A program made the position numbers and the translations under genes. This document shows positions 35,311 to 40,639 of a stretch of DNA of 43,470 bases, one piece after another (the stretch's first letter is position 1; each line of letters begins with the position of its first letter). Under the pieces are notes generated by a model, which did no database searches, had not been told where the DNA came from, and worked only from the letters and a program-made list of their open reading frames with translations. The stretch comes from Spirochaetia bacterium (GTDB lineage Bacteria > Spirochaetota > Spirochaetia > CADAEX01). The stretch lies in NCBI GenBank assembly GCA_045606105.1, contig JAZURI010000004.1:1-43470 (forward strand), in the 5' to 3' direction.

Positions 35311-35892
35311 ATGGGAAGAAAATTATCTGAGTACATTATTTTTGCCGCAATGCTGATTCTGATATCAGGCTGCAGACTCAACTACAAGGAGGCTGACATA
35401 ACCGACACCTTCTCCGATTCGGTTCCCAACAGCATCCTTACCTCTTTTTCCCAGACTGTAGTGGAAAACAAGGCTACGGCATACACAGTGGAGGCTGACA
35501 GGGCCGAGCTTTACGACAAGACCTCCGCCACCTATTTTGAGAACATAAGCTTCAAGGAATTCGATTCCGAAGGAAATGTGGGAACCGAAGGAGCCGCACG
35601 GAAGGCCACCTATTACAGCAACAACGACAACATCATCTTTGACGGCGACATGATAATCAATTCCAAGGAGCAGGATTTCATAGTCCGCAGCAATTACATG
35701 GAATGGGACAACAAGAACAGAATACTCAAAAGCAGGGACGATACACCCGTAACCATAGAGCAGGGAGAAGGAACCTATATTTCAGGCAGGGGCTTCATTT
35801 CCGATGCAGCCTCAAAAACCTTCACATTCCTGGAAAAGGCTGAAGGAAGATTCTTCAAGGAAGAGGAAGAAAACGATGAAGAAAACAATTAG
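35311..35892 (+). CDS. lptC: LPS export protein LptC-like (lipoprotein-type N-terminus)
   Basis: LISGC lipobox, beta-rich sequence, position before lptA and lptB. Confidence 0.75.
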   Translation: MGRKLSEYIIFAAMLILISGCRLNYKEADITDTFSDSVPNSILTSFSQTVVENKATAYTVEADRAELYDKTSATYFENISFKEFDSEGNVGTEGAARKATYYSNNDNIIFDGDMIINSKEQDFIVRSNYMEWDNKNRILKSRDDTPVTIEQGEGTYISGRGFISDAASKTFTFLEKAEGRFFKEEEENDEENN

Positions 35893-36571
35893 TCTGCTGA
35901 TTCTGCTTGTACTCTTTGCCGGACAGCTTCATGCCTCCGACGATTTCTCTTTTTTCGGAGACAGGCTTTCTTCCGTCAGGGCAAAAGGGAGAGAACAGAC
36001 CGTTCTGCGGGGAAATGCGGGAATAGTTTCATCATCCACATCAATCAAGGCCGATTATATTGAAATCTTCGGAGATGACAATGAATTTGCCGAATGCACG
36101 GGCAATGTGGAGGTCCGGGACAACGAAAAGGGGATTTTCCTCAAGGCTGGAAAGCTTTTCTTCAACAGAGAGGATGATATAATCAGGGCAGAGGGCTCCG
36201 CTGTCATGGAGGATGCCAGAAACGAGGTGGTAGCCAGAGGAAATTTTCTGGAATACCGCGGCAAGGACGAAGTCTGCATGATACAGATCGGGGTCAGGAT
36301 CTTCAAGGATGAAATGGTATGCCGTTCGGAATTTGCGGAATACAGCAGGAATGACGAGATACTCAGGCTTTCGGGAATGCCGGTGGTTTATCGTGAGGAT
36401 GACGAATACAGGGCCCTGAGGATAATCATAGACATAGACAAGGATGAAATCACCCTGGAGGGAAGGGTTTCCGGAAAGATCTTCTCCGAAGATAATGAAA
36501 ACGATGAAACTGAGGAAATTGAGGAATCTGAAGAAACCGAAGAAGACGAGAAAGAGGAAGCAGAGGAATGA
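35876..36571 (+). CDS. lptA: LptA/OstA family protein
   Basis: Signal peptide MKKTISLL..., repeated GNA/GNV/GSA beta-jellyroll motifs, acidic tail. Confidence 0.78.
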   Translation: MKKTISLLILLVLFAGQLHASDDFSFFGDRLSSVRAKGREQTVLRGNAGIVSSSTSIKADYIEIFGDDNEFAECTGNVEVRDNEKGIFLKAGKLFFNREDDIIRAEGSAVMEDARNEVVARGNFLEYRGKDEVCMIQIGVRIFKDEMVCRSEFAEYSRNDEILRLSGMPVVYREDDEYRALRIIIDIDKDEITLEGRVSGKIFSEDNENDETEEIEESEETEEDEKEEAEE

Positions 36572-37314
36572 GCAATATTTTTGATGACGGCGAACATCTG
36601 ACCGTACGGGGTCTGAAAAAGGTTTTCGGCAGAAAAACAGCAGTTGCGGGAATAGATTTCACCATGTACAAAGGGGAAATCGTAGGCTTTCTCGGACAGA
36701 ACGGTGCAGGAAAAACCACAGCCTTCTACATGATTGCAGGATTTATCAAGCCTACCGACGGACAGATACTTCTGGGGGATACCGAAATATCAAAATACCC
36801 TATGTACAAACGGGCACAGATGGGAATATCTTACCTTCCTCAGGAGCCTTCCATTTTCAGGAAGCTTACCGTTGAAGAAAACATAAATGCGGTTCTGGAA
36901 ACCAGAAAGGATATTTCAAAGGAAGAAAAGAAGAGAATCCTTGAAGAGCTTATCGAGGAATTCGGAATAGGACATATCAGACGTCAGATGGCCTTTACTC
37001 TTTCGGGAGGAGAACGGCGAAGAACAGAAATAGCCAGAGCCCTTTCCATGAAGCCTAAATACCTGCTGCTGGATGAGCCCTTTTCGGGCATCGACCCTAT
37101 TGCCGTAGCAGAAATCAAGGGAATCATCAAGAAATTCTCCGACAAGAATATCGGTGTACTTATTACAGACCATAATGTCAGGGATACTCTGGATATCACA
37201 GACAGAGCCTACATCATCAGCAAGGGACAGATTGTGGTACAGGGAAGCAGGGACGATATCCTGGCTGATGAGCTTGCAAGAAAGACCTACCTGGGCGAAT
37301 CCTTCTCCATGTAA
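36568..37314 (+). CDS. lptB: LPS export ABC transporter ATPase
   Basis: GQNGAGKTT, YLPQEPSIFRKL, LSGGERRR, LLDEPFSGIDP and ITDHNVRDTL motifs. Confidence 0.96.
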   Translation: MSNIFDDGEHLTVRGLKKVFGRKTAVAGIDFTMYKGEIVGFLGQNGAGKTTAFYMIAGFIKPTDGQILLGDTEISKYPMYKRAQMGISYLPQEPSIFRKLTVEENINAVLETRKDISKEEKKRILEELIEEFGIGHIRRQMAFTLSGGERRRTEIARALSMKPKYLLLDEPFSGIDPIAVAEIKGIIKKFSDKNIGVLITDHNVRDTLDITDRAYIISKGQIVVQGSRDDILADELARKTYLGESFSM

Positions 37315-38309
37315 TCTTTCTCAGATTCGGTAAACATTGCAATTTCATGCAATTTAGCTCTAAGCAGATTTTTATCAGGCAGCTTAAATGTATAATCAGC
37401 AACCATTGCCGGGGAAAGACTGCTGCTTAAAGCATACTCGACAACTGTATCATCTTTACATGTGCAAAGAATCAGGCCGACACTGGGATTCTCATGTTCA
37501 TTCCTAACATCCCTATTCAATGCTTCCAGATAAAAATTCAGCTGTCCCAGATGTTCAGGTCTGAATTTACCAACCTTGAGTTCAACGGCAACAAGACACG
37601 AAAGAACCCGGTTATAAAATAACAAATCAACAAAAAAATCAGTATTTCCAACTTGAATTCTATATTCTTCATCTATAAAAGTAAAATCTTTGCCAAACTC
37701 CAGTATAAATTTTTTAAGATTTGCAATAATGGATTTTCTTAGATCTTTTTCTTTGAATTTTTTAGGAACATCTAAAAATTCCAGCACATAAAAATCTCTG
37801 AATGCTGCAACAGCAGGATATTGTTTTATAAGAGAATGGTGTTTAGATGCATATAGGATATTTCGTTCATAAAGCATACTGTCAATCTGTCTTTCCAATT
37901 CTCTTTTTCCGTAATTGTTATCAATACAAAGCCTGATATAAAATTCCTTGGCTTCATCTGTTTTACAATTAGACATGATGATCAGATTATTTGACCATGT
38001 AATTTCTCTCACCAGTGGTGAGAGTTTTTCATTTTGACTATAAGTTTCATAAAATTGCTTCATCCTCCAAATATTCTGAGAAGAAAATCCACTTGCAGAA
38101 GGGTATGTCTGTTTAAGAAAACATGAAAAATCCCTTACTACCCCTTTTCCCCAGCCATCAGAAGCTGCTTTTTCACTGACAAACTTACCTATCTGCCAAT
38201 ACATCTCAATCATTTCAGCATTTACGGCTTTAATGGCTCTTGTTTTAGCCCTTTCTATAATTTCAATTATATTATTAAAATCGTTGATATATCTGATTAT
38301 TTCTGTCAT
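37287..38309 (-). CDS. yhcG: YhcG/DUF1016 PD-(D/E)XK nuclease-family protein
   Basis: MYWQIG, GWG, GFS.QNIWRMKQFY, ITWSNN, YVLEFL, LEFGKDFTF, VDLLFY..VELK and GQLNFYL motifs. Confidence 0.93.
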   Translation of the reverse strand: MTEIIRYINDFNNIIEIIERAKTRAIKAVNAEMIEMYWQIGKFVSEKAASDGWGKGVVRDFSCFLKQTYPSASGFSSQNIWRMKQFYETYSQNEKLSPLVREITWSNNLIIMSNCKTDEAKEFYIRLCIDNNYGKRELERQIDSMLYERNILYASKHHSLIKQYPAVAAFRDFYVLEFLDVPKKFKEKDLRKSIIANLKKFILEFGKDFTFIDEEYRIQVGNTDFFVDLLFYNRVLSCLVAVELKVGKFRPEHLGQLNFYLEALNRDVRNEHENPSVGLILCTCKDDTVVEYALSSSLSPAMVADYTFKLPDKNLLRAKLHEIAMFTESEKDYMEKDSPR

Positions 38310-38381
38310 TTTTATGTCCGCTCATATCAAAAACAATAAAAAATGACAGTTTGATTCAATTTCGAATCCTTCTCCATGTAA
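37296..38381. mobile_element. Single-gene yhcG insert flanked by exact 19-bp direct repeats
   Basis: CGAATCCTTCTCCATGTAA at 37296-37314 (lptB 3' end including the stop) and at 38363-38381; AT-rich interior. Confidence 0.8.
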
Positions 38382-38388
38382 AAAGGAC

Positions 38389-38419
38389 AAAAAAAACTCT
38401 CACCGATGGTGAGAGTTTT
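38389..38419 (-). terminator. Intrinsic terminator after tRNA-Leu (possibly bidirectional)
   Basis: AAAACTCTCACC-gat-GGTGAGAGTTTT (38393-38419), with U-tracts on both strands. Confidence 0.85.
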
Positions 38420-38420
38420 A

Positions 38421-38504
38421 TACCGGCGGTCGGAGTCGAACCGACACAGAGTTGCCCCCGACAGATTTTGAGTCTGTTGCGTCTACCAATTTCGCCACGC
38501 CGGC
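38421..38504 (-). tRNA. tRNA-Leu(CAA), CCA not encoded
   Basis: Acceptor GCCGGCG/CGCCGGT-A, D-loop TGGTA, anticodon arm ACAGA-ctCAAaa-TCTGT, long variable arm, GGTTCGACTCC T-arm; 84 nt. Confidence 0.97.
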
Positions 38505-38520
38505 CTGTGTTGTATTTCAT

Positions 38521-38557
38521 AAACTACATTGACTTTTCTTTTTTGTCAATCAATAAT
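38521..38557. promoter_or_regulatory. Overlapping divergent promoters (tRNA / radical SAM gene)
   Basis: Minus strand: TTGACA(38544-49)-17-TAGTTT. Plus strand: TTGACT(38529-34)-17-AATAAT, ending 7 nt before ATG 38565. Confidence 0.6.
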
Positions 38558-38564
38558 ATCAACG

Positions 38565-39485
38565 ATGTATACCAATTGCTCATTATGTCCAAGAAAATGC
38601 GGCATTGACAGAACCGCCGGAAAAACCGGTTTCTGCAGAGCCGGAGAGAGAATACGCCTCTCCTGCGCCACACTCCACTACGGGGAAGAGCCACCTATTA
38701 CAGGCAAGGGGGGAAGCGGTACCCTTTTCTTTACAGGCTGTACACTTCAGTGCAGATTCTGTCAGAATCATCAAATAAGCAGAGGGGGAATCGGCCGGGA
38801 TATAAGCACCGGTGAATTTGCCGATATCTGTCTTCAGCTTCAGGACAGAGGAGCCGAAAACATAAACCTGGTTACAGGCACCATGTACATTCCGTCCATT
38901 GCGGAGGGAATAACCAAAGCCAGAAAATCGGGGCTGGAAATTCCGGTTCTGTGGAATTCATCCGGCTACGAGGATATGGATGCGCTGGATATCATCAACA
39001 GCTTTACCGACGTATATCTTCCCGACATAAAGACTCTGAACCACACCTTTGCACGCTATTTCTTCAATGCACCCGACTATCCGGAAAGGGCAAAGGAGGC
39101 AGTGGAAAAGATGGCCGGATTCGGAAAACCTGAATTCAGGAACGATAAGATAATAAAAGGAACCATAGTACGCCATCTGGTTATTCCGGGCTATGTGGAA
39201 ATGACTGAAAAGGTACTCAGATGGTATGCCGAAAAGCTTATGGACAAGGCGCTGATTTCCGTCATGTTCCAGTACTCTCCCGAAGCGGCGGAAGGAGACG
39301 GCTTTCCCGACAGAACCCTGTCAAAAAGTGAAATGGACATGGTTTACGCCCTGCTGGACGAATACGGCATAGAAGACGGCTTTATCCAGGAGGAAGAGAT
39401 TTCCGACGAATGGAACCCGGACTTCAACAACAGATCTCCTTTCCCGGGAGGAACAGGAAAAACAGTATGGCACTGGAAGGACTGA
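38565..39485 (+). CDS. PflX-like radical SAM protein
   Basis: CSLCPRKCG, HYGEEPPI.G..GSGT, CTLQCRFCQN, DVYLPDIK and IVRHLVIPG motifs. Confidence 0.88.
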   Translation: MYTNCSLCPRKCGIDRTAGKTGFCRAGERIRLSCATLHYGEEPPITGKGGSGTLFFTGCTLQCRFCQNHQISRGGIGRDISTGEFADICLQLQDRGAENINLVTGTMYIPSIAEGITKARKSGLEIPVLWNSSGYEDMDALDIINSFTDVYLPDIKTLNHTFARYFFNAPDYPERAKEAVEKMAGFGKPEFRNDKIIKGTIVRHLVIPGYVEMTEKVLRWYAEKLMDKALISVMFQYSPEAAEGDGFPDRTLSKSEMDMVYALLDEYGIEDGFIQEEEISDEWNPDFNNRSPFPGGTGKTVWHWKD

Positions 39486-40639
39486 AAAAAAAGCTGCTGA
39501 TTATTCTTTTTTCCACCGCAGTTGTACTTCAGGCTCATGGCGTAACGGTCAGGGAAATAGAGGTAGAGGGGCTTAAAAAGACAAATCCCGAAAGATTCAT
39601 GAAGCTTCTGGAACGGTACAAAGGGAAAGAAGCCGACACCGAAGCTGTTACGGAAACCATACTCCGGACAGGGATTTTCGAAACTCCCGAAACAGAAGTC
39701 ACCGAAGAGGGAACACTCCGTATCAAAGTAAAGGAAAAATTCTCCTTTCTCCCCATTCCCTTTGCCTCTGCATCATCAGGCACCTATATGGGGGGCTTGG
39801 TCATCATGGACAACAATGCCTTCGGTCTCATGAACAGTCTGGCGGCAGGAGGTTTCTTTTCAGACAGCTCCTACAGCTTTTTCGCCGGATACAGCCACAG
39901 ACAGGGTGCCGACGAACCATTCGGATGGCAGTTTGCAGTCAACAGCGGAAAAACCGATGCAGAAACAGAAAATGAATACGGCACCGTGCTTCATAGGTAC
40001 TCCGGCACCAAATACGGAATCTCGGGAGGCATCAGCTGCCGGCCGCTTCCGGGAATAAGGCTGGGAACCAAGGCAGGCTACAGGACCTTTGACGGCGAGC
40101 CTTCGGTTCCGGTATCTGTTTCGGCCTCTGCAGGGAAAAGCAGCTGGAACGGCATCTTCATGAATACATCCTCTCTGGACATAACGGCAGAACACTCCTT
40201 CGGCTCGGAAGACAGGAGCTTTTCTTCAATTACCGTAAAGGGACTCTGGGAACAGCCCCTGCCCGGCAGGCTCAGACTTACGGCAGAAGCCGGCTGGTTC
40301 CATGCCCCTGATATTCCCCCTGAATACGCAGAATCCCCTTCCGTAACCGGAATCTCCCTTCTGGGAAGCAGATACAAGGTTTCTTCCGCCGCCTCCTGCG
40401 GCGCCGGCCTGGAATGGTGTGCCCTGAATCTGCCTTTCGGGATGCTGACCCTTTACGGACAGTATCAGCTGGCATATCTGGAAAATGTGACTTACGGGGA
40501 AACTCCTGCTCACGGACCTGTGGCAGGAATAAGATTTTACCTGAAAAAAATAGCATTCCCGGCCATCAACATCTATACTTCGTACAATGCCGACACCGGG
40601 AATCTGCGCACCTCGGCAGGAGCAGGATTCAGCTTCTGA
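39467..40639 (+). CDS. Short Omp85/POTRA-containing outer-membrane beta-barrel protein
   Basis: Signal peptide, POTRA-like IEVEGLKKT...TGIFE...IKVKEK, barrel start LPIPF..D.NAFG, terminal GFSF. Confidence 0.7.
   Translation: MALEGLKKKLLIILFSTAVVLQAHGVTVREIEVEGLKKTNPERFMKLLERYKGKEADTEAVTETILRTGIFETPETEVTEEGTLRIKVKEKFSFLPIPFASASSGTYMGGLVIMDNNAFGLMNSLAAGGFFSDSSYSFFAGYSHRQGADEPFGWQFAVNSGKTDAETENEYGTVLHRYSGTKYGISGGISCRPLPGIRLGTKAGYRTFDGEPSVPVSVSASAGKSSWNGIFMNTSSLDITAEHSFGSEDRSFSSITVKGLWEQPLPGRLRLTAEAGWFHAPDIPPEYAESPSVTGISLLGSRYKVSSAASCGAGLEWCALNLPFGMLTLYGQYQLAYLENVTYGETPAHGPVAGIRFYLKKIAFPAINIYTSYNADTGNLRTSAGAGFSF

Follow-up and report, generated by a model that had tools for sequence, protein, structure and literature searches.

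An in-frame palindrome of YhcG/DUF1016 nuclease genes and its satellite copy beside a tRNA-Leu gene in a Spirochaetia bacterium

Two near-identical palindromes inside and upstream of yhcG

The gene yhcG, a member of the YhcG/DUF1016 nuclease family, carries a short palindrome within its own codons, and a nearly identical palindrome stands between the gene and a neighbouring tRNA-Leu gene in a 43,470-nucleotide (nt) stretch of DNA from a Spirochaetia bacterium (assembly GCA_045606105.1, contig JAZURI010000004.1, positions 1 to 43,470 of the forward strand; below referred to as the window). The inner palindrome is an in-frame element conserved in YhcG/DUF1016 genes of many phyla, and the outer one is a satellite of this family element rather than an unrelated host hairpin. 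On the basis of the modelled protein we tentatively suggest that the palindrome represents the putative cognate DNA site of YhcG; this grading applies jointly to the three parts of the explanation (family element, satellite and cognate site), which we regard as possible, if somewhat short of probable. The features referred to below are the following.

36568-37314, plus strand: lptB (ABC ATPase), convergent with tRNA-Leu
37287-38309, minus strand: yhcG, 340 amino acids, DUF1016_N plus YhcG_C PD-(D/E)XK nuclease, PADLOC candidate PDC-S02
37296-37314, plus strand: left 19-bp repeat, the true lptB 3′ end including TAA (compare the lptB ends of congeners)
37315-38381, no strand: present/absent unit (insert plus one repeat copy), 1,067 bp, low G+C
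38006-38028, minus strand: inner palindrome, 8-bp arms, 3-nt loop, T-run on the plus strand, codons K95-E102
38363-38381, plus strand: right 19-bp repeat, duplicated lptB end, 53 nt upstream of the yhcG ATG
38393-38419, no strand: outer palindrome (satellite copy), AAAACTCTCACC-GAT-GGTGAGAGTTTT, 12-bp stem, predicted bidirectional Rho-independent terminator
38421-38504, minus strand: tRNA-Leu(CAA), 3′ end abutting the outer palindrome

The inner copy, CTCTCACCAGTGGTGAGAGTTTT (38006-38028), encodes K95-E102 (KLSPLVRE) of the minus-strand yhcG reading frame. Its outer counterpart, CTCTCACCGATGGTGAGAGTTTT (38397-38419), lies 88-110 nt upstream of the yhcG ATG and 391 bp from the inner copy, a single base separating its end from tRNA-Leu(CAA). 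The original prediction had pointed out two near-duplicate 23-mers, the second one beginning about 15 bp outside the right 19-bp repeat and upstream of the yhcG start. Both were recovered from the window sequence at these positions, with 21 of 23 identical bases (91%) and only the two central loop bases swapped, and the outer copy indeed starts 15 nt past the repeat. With up to two mismatches, the pattern CTCTCACCNNTGGTGAGAG occurs at these two sites only in the window (0.00 expected from 100 shuffles) and at the same two sites only in the whole genome of 1,464,972 bases, where the reversed control pattern is absent. Chance is therefore excluded, and the hairpin is not the common genome-wide repeat which the prediction had named among its possible refutations, having just two copies in 1.46 Mb. 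A coincidence, in which a host terminator merely shares an 8-bp stem with the gene, might be defended by the ca. seven independent stand-alone terminators with the same stem found without a nearby DUF1016 gene among 185,579 genomes. However, this corresponds to a frequency of about 5 in 100,000 genomes, while the only two copies of the window genome are close neighbours, and coincidence is thus effectively refuted. A 17-nt likeness (88%) between the left junction of the insert and the sequence beside the inner palindrome was also considered and attributed to chance, as the window contains about 20 equal chance repeats.

The palindrome as a conserved family element

The homologue set consisted of 80 loci from many phyla, including some archaea, with 50-82% amino acid identity to the window yhcG. 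A perfect in-frame palindrome is found at the same codons in 77 of these close-homologue loci, and the 24 nt AAACTCTCACCACTGGTGAGAGAA are almost invariant across all 80, third codon positions included; the sequence of the window gene is that of the consensus, read on the sense strand as CTCTCACC-ACT-GGTGAGAG. Compensatory arm variants (CTCTCAGC..GCTGAGAG, CTGTCACC..GGTGACAG, CTCGCACC..GGTGCGAG and CTCGCCCC..GGGGCGAG) occur even where S, P, V or R is changed. In the alignment of 81 sequences 97.3% of 552 cells are paired, compared to 89.7 +/- 0.6% in shuffles, none of which reached the observed value in 500 trials, and to 36-58% in a slid-partner control; changes on both sides are seen at four of the eight pairs (23 cells). 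The arm variants are recurrent on a quickly built tree, calculated with the palindrome residues masked and locus L077 left out: CAGC/GCTG requires at least four changes, and CTGTCACC and CTCGCACC arose twice each. The comparative data show a palindrome whose symmetry is kept by paired changes that take precedence over codon choice and even over the encoded residues.

The normalised codon entropy is 0.17 at residues 94-100 versus a gene mean of 0.853, and all 12 of the 12 lowest codon-entropy windows fall within residues 88-109, which form the sole trough of synonymous variation in the gene; a second trough, as a sign of a conserved antisense promoter or another constrained site, was not found in the window subfamily. 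The unpaired A-rich flanks are conserved as well, one codon accounting for 97-99% at each of E94, K95 and E102. The palindrome is located just before a conserved (I/L)xW motif and is centred on the first base of a Leu/Val codon, and each third position therefore pairs with the second position of the partner codon. In position, centre, arm co-variation and frozen synonymous sites the window gene agrees with the family.

An independent set of 80 relatives of Escherichia coli YhcG (39-100% identity) contains 61 loci with a perfect palindrome, with arms of at least 8 nt, at +200 to +480, compared to 0.18 per kb elsewhere in the gene. Its arm type is a different one (..CAGAC-A[C/G]T-GTCTG..), and the arms reach 15-18 nt in Escherichia. 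The original prediction, which considered this segment as variable and often palindromic, is confirmed by both sets with respect to the palindrome; variability holds only for the E. coli subfamily, as in the window subfamily the segment is the least variable one at synonymous sites.

Near-identical palindromes are also present in archaeal DUF1016 genes (Bathyarchaeota, Woesearchaeota, Nanoarchaeota and Methanosarcinales; L053, L055 and several of L140-L172), which are nested among bacterial sequences. Two further explanations of the segment were rejected. A frameshift signal was dismissed by reasoning only, since GAA-AAA-C does not conform to the canonical slippery heptamers and no spacer separates it from the stem. 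Shuffling of N- and C-terminal halves at the palindrome is not indicated, because the pairwise identities of the halves correlate (0.835) without clear recombinants.

Satellite copies near other DUF1016 genes

Second copies matching the resident arms were detected at 24 of the 80 loci, a count that includes a second in-frame site ca. 183 nt downstream, compared to 1-8 of 80 for palindromes with shuffled arms. At all four loci with minority arm variants (L056, L059, L057 and L065) the extragenic copy has the same variant as the gene. Both the enrichment of matching copies over shuffled controls and their co-variation with the arms of the gene, as expected from the original prediction, are thereby borne out. 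Upstream satellites are positioned at -67 to -102 in L042, L056 and L059, with a spacing of 343-360 bp between the copies, and others directly follow the yhcG stop (L015, L016, L018 and L019); L220 has copies 83 nt upstream and 46 nt downstream besides the inner one. In L065 three upstream copies of a 27-bp perfect palindrome, AATTCTC[T/G]CACCAGTGGTG[A/C]GAGAATT, are found (2507-2890). The outer copy of the window, extragenic, with the resident arms and at a distance of no more than a few hundred bp from a DUF1016 gene, conforms to these satellites.

Two of these loci deserve a description of their own. The copies in L065 sit in repeated units of ca. 145-212 bp, and the inner palindrome of the resident DUF1016 gene is degenerate. 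L057 (858-6967) is a type I restriction operon of the order hsdM-hsdS-[AbiJ-like]-[DUF1016]-hsdR, in which the rare CGCAAC-arm palindrome occurs both directly behind the stop codon of hsdS and within the DUF1016 gene itself.

When 185,579 species genomes were scanned with AAACTCTCACC-NNN-GGTGAGAGTTT, 42 loci were obtained; 25 of the symmetric sites are inside a DUF1016 match, eight are within 3-465 nt of one and nine are in fetched loci without a DUF1016 gene. These nine include two orthologous pairs, and three adjoin tRNA genes. In L214 (ca. 2900-2975) an E. coli-type (..CTGCAGACAGTGTCTGCAG..) and a window-type palindrome are 7 nt apart in an 8-kb locus without a DUF1016 match; they are orphan or fossil sites.

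The same data bear on the question whether the palindrome is a mutational by-product. Template switching during replication is known to symmetrise quasi-palindromes (Ripley-type correction). A quasi-palindrome in a conserved peptide might be kept symmetric in this manner, and the same errors might extend its arms and seed copies, without a dedicated function and with the outer copy merely co-opted as a terminator. Accordingly, the copies outside coding sequence are longer and perfect, made by mirroring of one flank (AAAAC..GTTTT or AATTC..GAATT), the arms in Escherichia have reached 15-18 nt while close relatives lack the element, and tandem in-frame copies and sporadic satellites occur. Moreover, since third positions pair with second positions, any symmetrising force would freeze the synonymous sites. 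We nevertheless judge this explanation to be rather improbable, because the element persists at the same codon and in the same frame across bacteria and archaea and in two subfamilies, because it is strongly associated with one family (33 of the 42 symmetric sites lie within or next to DUF1016), and because unpaired flanks are conserved as well.

The outer hairpin as a predicted terminator

The stem of the outer copy reaches 12 bp, 38393-38404 being paired with 38408-38419, because the A/T flanks extend the arms. Terminator scoring indicated 12 pairs, five of them G-C, and the tail TTTTGTCCTT directly after tRNA-Leu, and folding gave -16.1 and -16.6 kcal/mol (z -5.6 and -5.3). With a G+C stem-loop, a T-run and a location at the 3′ end of a transcription unit, the outer copy is predicted from its form and position to terminate transcription Rho-independently in both directions, that of tRNA-Leu on the minus strand and that of lptB on the plus strand. 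The hairpin of a foreign element would thus have been recruited in the window as the terminator of a core tRNA gene. The inner copy is terminator-like only on the plus strand, antisense to yhcG. A search of Rfam with E values up to 10 revealed no family at either palindrome. The outer hairpin agrees with L182 over 28 nt without a mismatch, GAT loop included; this likeness was set aside as insignificant given the 22 fixed bases of the search pattern.

An alternative is that the palindrome is selected as a hairpin of the sense transcript, i.e. as a 3′-end, processing or stability signal, which terminates outside genes and modulates the mRNA inside yhcG. Stem mismatches are mostly of the G:T type on the sense strand (10 versus two A:C; seven versus zero at synonymous sites), the outer copy is a textbook terminator, and satellites are found at the 3′ ends of tRNA-Leu in the window, of gltD and yhcG in E. 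coli and of hsdS in L057. However, the symmetry extends to the central base in about three quarters of the inner copies, the ninth pair being A:T in 57 of 67 rows, and a loop of one base predominates in the E. coli YhcG set. This disfavours an RNA element, as a hairpin cannot use the central ninth pair. Furthermore, a U-run is missing from the sense strand of the inner hairpin, the conserved A-rich flanks are unpaired, and the Rfam search was negative. Selection at the RNA level therefore appears hardly more than a minor candidate.

The inserted unit and its occupied and empty alleles

The product of yhcG matches DUF1016_N (PF17761; E 3.9e-45, 153.8 bits, cut-off 32.8), YhcG_C (PF06250; E 5.6e-54, 182.7 bits, cut-off 32.5) and the PADLOC candidate PDC-S02 (E 4e-125). 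Its closest relatives stem from gut Bacillota with up to 82% amino acid identity, and the phyla are intermixed in the gene tree. An exact 19-bp direct repeat, CGAATCCTTCTCCATGTAA, is present at 37296-37314 and 38363-38381 (spacing 1067), and the GC content is 0.30-0.34 inside the insert block versus 0.42-0.52 outside. The gene yhcG entered as a low-GC unit of 1,067 bp related to gut Bacillota genes and bounded by a duplication of the lptB end. The unit contains yhcG alone and no integrase or recombinase gene. The yhcG reading frame convergently overlaps lptB by 28 nt (37287-37314), and its last nine codons (DYMEKDSPR) run through the left repeat as antisense of the lptB end, which implies that insertion cost the gene its native C-terminus and stop; homologues align to residues 1-329/332 only.

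Within a comparison set of eight other species of the genus the site is empty in six, where the lptB stop is followed after 5-8 nt by tRNA-Leu without a hairpin; G001 was discarded as an empty-site comparator due to differing synteny. G005 (locus L004) holds the same insert, identical at 1043 of 1047 positions (99.6%), whereas the lptB body and the radical-SAM gene are identical at 84.8% and 90.3%, respectively, and the near-identical tract begins 29 nt to the left of the repeat and includes the tRNA. This difference in identity points to a recent lateral spread of the whole segment, presumably and most simply via homologous recombination in the flanks. Over the entire region (window 35804-40600 versus L004) the identity forms a mosaic, with 76% for an lptA-like gene, 85% for lptB, 99.6% for the insert, 90% for radical SAM and 98% for the next gene, which suggests frequent recombination between the two species.

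Strain-level alleles were searched for in Logan contigs of four public animal-gut sequencing runs. One contig of run X16 (587 nt, depth 5.4, a single contig) joins 37314 to 38389 with AAAGGACA in between. It represents an allele of a near-identical strain which lacks exactly the insert and one repeat copy, i.e. the 1,067-bp unit, and retains the spacer, the A-run and the hairpin; yhcG contigs are present in the same run. To the question of the original prediction whether relatives with an empty site already possess the hairpin, the answer is therefore divided: the six congeners do not and the X16 strain does. The unit is polymorphic in its presence, and this polymorphism leaves the satellite behind or finds it there already. 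Two scans of a metagenome contig collection, with the lptB end and with the hairpin/tRNA junction, gave no match each, so that this collection adds no allele of either kind, empty or occupied.

The yhcG copy of G005 has a 1-nt frame deletion at the equivalent of window position ca. 37575, and a contig of run X12 lacks one base at the yhcG start codon (window 38309); these changes may reflect a decay of yhcG in some lineages or, alternatively, errors of assembly. In X1 and X15 the ends or overlaps of Logan contigs coincide exactly with the inner palindrome (38004-38033). These breaks, and a joint of 38030 to 38185 in X15, were considered as an inversion and then read instead as branching of the assembly graph, probably because this 31-mer is common to DUF1016 genes of many organisms in the metagenome.

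The parallel in Escherichia coli

In E. coli K-12 the inner palindrome of yhcG is at +383, and satellites follow 19 nt after the yhcG stop and 17 nt after gltD, and the segment from gltF to yhcG is enclosed between two palindromes. Strain 536 has the order gltD-terminator-yhcG-palindrome-nanQ, while 946 of 5,426 complete E. coli genomes, including UTI89, have gltD-palindrome-nanQ without yhcG. In BL21(DE3) (L179, 2129-2640) yhcG breaks off immediately behind the inner palindrome, and foreign DNA containing a transposase reading frame comes next, and in strain GD33 (L178, 2485-2520) an IS1 junction is located in the left arm of the inner palindrome. A second, unrelated lineage therefore exhibits a yhcG-less allele that keeps its border palindrome, and breakpoints that fall at the inner one.

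Insertion of DUF1016 units and the landing-pad question

Several other DUF1016 loci are flanked by direct repeats that consist of host DNA: 160+22 bp in L034, comprising a whole small gene; 36 bp in L039, corresponding to the terminator of a tRNA; 44+19 bp in L041, corresponding to a tRNA end plus terminator; 24 bp in L069; ca. 136 bp in L076; and 14-16 bp in L049, L070 and L051. Repeats of at least 16 bp flank five of 68 loci with full flanks compared to five of 1,984 control placements, and their length ranges from 14 to ca. 209 bp between loci. DUF1016 units stand directly after tRNA genes in L039 (135-1402), L041 (704-2250) and L042 (290-560), with the tRNA terminator (in L041 also the tRNA 3′ end) duplicated on both sides. 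A preference of DUF1016 units for insertion close to tRNA genes and terminators seems likely.

The original prediction listed an operator, an address or guide for insertion and a sequence exchanged by conversion as possible roles of the palindrome. In the landing-pad form of the second of these, a palindrome of the family type was present between lptB and tRNA-Leu beforehand, and recognition by the nuclease directed the yhcG unit beside it; empty alleles with a palindrome would then be unoccupied targets. Several observations fit. The yhcG-less X16 allele keeps the hairpin, 946 E. coli genomes have gltD-palindrome-nanQ at the place that yhcG and a subsequent palindrome occupy in other strains, and the K-12 segment is flanked by two such palindromes. 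A position beyond the 19-bp repeats, such as that of the outer hairpin, is to be expected of a pre-existing target, and orphan palindromes without a DUF1016 gene occur at nine of 42 loci, with both types in L214. On the other hand, the six empty congener sites have no hairpin, so that an earlier source of the pad has to be assumed, and none of the eight other repeat-flanked loci has a palindrome of its own type within 150 bp, which argues against insertion beside a matching palindrome as a general rule. Moreover, occupation leaves the site intact and brings in a further one within the gene, which precludes an immunity of the homing type, a deletion between the 19-bp repeats could equally yield empty alleles with a hairpin, and the near-identical G005 tract fits transfer by homologous recombination. 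With observations on both sides, a landing pad seems rather unlikely.

Protein model and proposed mechanism

The N-domain of YhcG was modelled with a pLDDT of ca. 90 and contains a short helix (96-102) followed by a helix at 105-114. Its best fold matches are a ParB-parS complex (Z 7.0, rmsd 5.6, 117 residues aligned), Spo0J (Z 6.2, rmsd 2.5, 90 residues) and KorB-operator complexes (Z 5.8 and 5.6). For the C-domain, the best matches are NucS (Z 6.6), AF1548 (6.0) and Hjc (4.8), in agreement with Kosinski et al. 2005 (PMC1189080), who placed the nuclease domain nearest to archaeal junction resolvases and YraN. A sequence search of the PDB with YhcG revealed no relative, and Pfam with E values up to 10 only DUF1016_N on the N-domain.

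Consistent with these data we propose a first scenario in which YhcG would consist of a ParB/KorB-like DNA-binding head, in which the short helix 96-102 precedes the conserved W-helix, fused to a nuclease of the Holliday-junction-resolvase/NucS type. The protein might bind the palindrome, its putative cognate site, as a symmetric dimer, or it might recognise the cruciform extruded from it. Simultaneous binding of the inner and the outer copy, which are separated by 391 bp, might mediate autoregulation or insulation, in analogy to lac O1/O2 or to parS in spo0J. Nuclease action at the palindromes might explain why new copies, truncations and indel end points cluster there.

Several points weigh against a cognate DNA site. 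The nuclease domain is poorly modelled, and fold matches of Z <=7 are rated by the search tool as possibly reflecting a common helical arrangement. The G:T-biased stem mismatches described above (10 versus two A:C) are better predicted by a single-strand fold than by double-stranded recognition. Changes in the arms would need matching shifts in protein specificity, unless recognition is by shape. Kluyvera and Citrobacter, close relatives with respect to E. coli yhcG, lack the palindrome, and the element is therefore dispensable there. A strict count of satellites, requiring a perfect palindrome with arms of at least 8 nt and the same inner 5 nt, gave eight of 129 loci, five of them Escherichia (permuted mean 2.8, maximum 6); satellites are thus real but sporadic, and poorly fit a conserved operator layout. 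Also to be counted here are the nine of 42 symmetric sites without a DUF1016 gene in the fetched locus. Finally, this scenario does not account for the arrival of the outer hairpin at its place outside the 19-bp repeats.

A bolder and, in our view, unlikely generalisation would be that YhcG genes are self-addressed nuclease cassettes: a cognate palindrome or cruciform would be carried in the codons of the gene's own DNA-binding head, site and reader would evolve as one, and shed copies would remain as footprints and landing pads for exit and re-entry, to be reused by hosts as terminators. If true, such cassettes would represent an organisation of mobile or defence genes with no described counterpart. 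YhcG/DUF1016 is among the commonest uncharacterised nuclease families, with members in E. coli K-12 as well as in defence islands and type I restriction operons. A signal which overrides codons and amino acids, and copies which survive where the gene has left, offer a first concrete handle on YhcG recognition, and the natural E. coli alleles already supply occupied, empty and palindrome-broken states.

Comparison with known systems

A description of the YhcG-family palindrome was not found by full-text searches of the literature or in the accessible parts of PMC9881135, PMC4316617, PMC1189080, PMC7967276 and PMC13734603; as far as the searches reach, the phenomenon is undescribed in print. Perfect inverted repeats of up to 284 bp inside the protein-coding sequence of many genes of one genome are reported in PMC6649704 (2019). 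As presented there, they share with the YhcG palindrome that both arms are coding. They differ in being long, in not being tied to one gene family across phyla and in lacking satellites.

The arrangement of an upstream and an in-gene palindrome copy, 391 bp apart here and 343-360 bp apart in L042, L056 and L059, resembles that of auxiliary operators. Intragenic operators of this kind are lac O2 in lacZ and gal OI in galE. In contrast to these, the upstream copy is present at a minority of YhcG loci only.

A single nuclease gene that is present or absent beside a tRNA gene and bounded by direct repeats also recalls homing endonucleases and tRNA-adjacent integrative elements. Direct repeats are found at both ends of the 1,067-bp unit; however, no integrase is encoded in it and the repeat lengths vary between loci. 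A homing site is split or removed by insertion, whereas the putative YhcG site survives, the hairpin being intact in both alleles and a second copy residing in the gene.

REP/REPIN palindromes accompany RAYT genes, which code for HUH/Y1 enzymes, and number tens to hundreds of REPs per genome. The likeness consists of a nuclease-type gene with adjacent hairpin-forming palindromes and of orphan intergenic copies at gene ends. YhcG differs as a PD-(D/E)XK enzyme outside the HUH family, with two copies in the window genome in place of many dispersed ones, and REPs are not known to lie in-frame within the RAYT gene; the window yhcG accordingly falls outside the REP/RAYT systems.

In the ParB/Spo0J-parS and KorB systems a helical domain reads a short palindrome as a dimer, and the site can lie in the protein's own gene with copies elsewhere. 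One parS of Bacillus subtilis is located within the spo0J coding sequence, and the OB operators of KorB are 13-bp palindromes with a central C/G. These proteins also provide the best fold matches of the YhcG N-domain. The match is weak (Z 5.6-7.0), and YhcG possesses a nuclease instead of a CTPase/partition module. Furthermore, the arms of the YhcG site vary between homologues and drag the encoded residues along.

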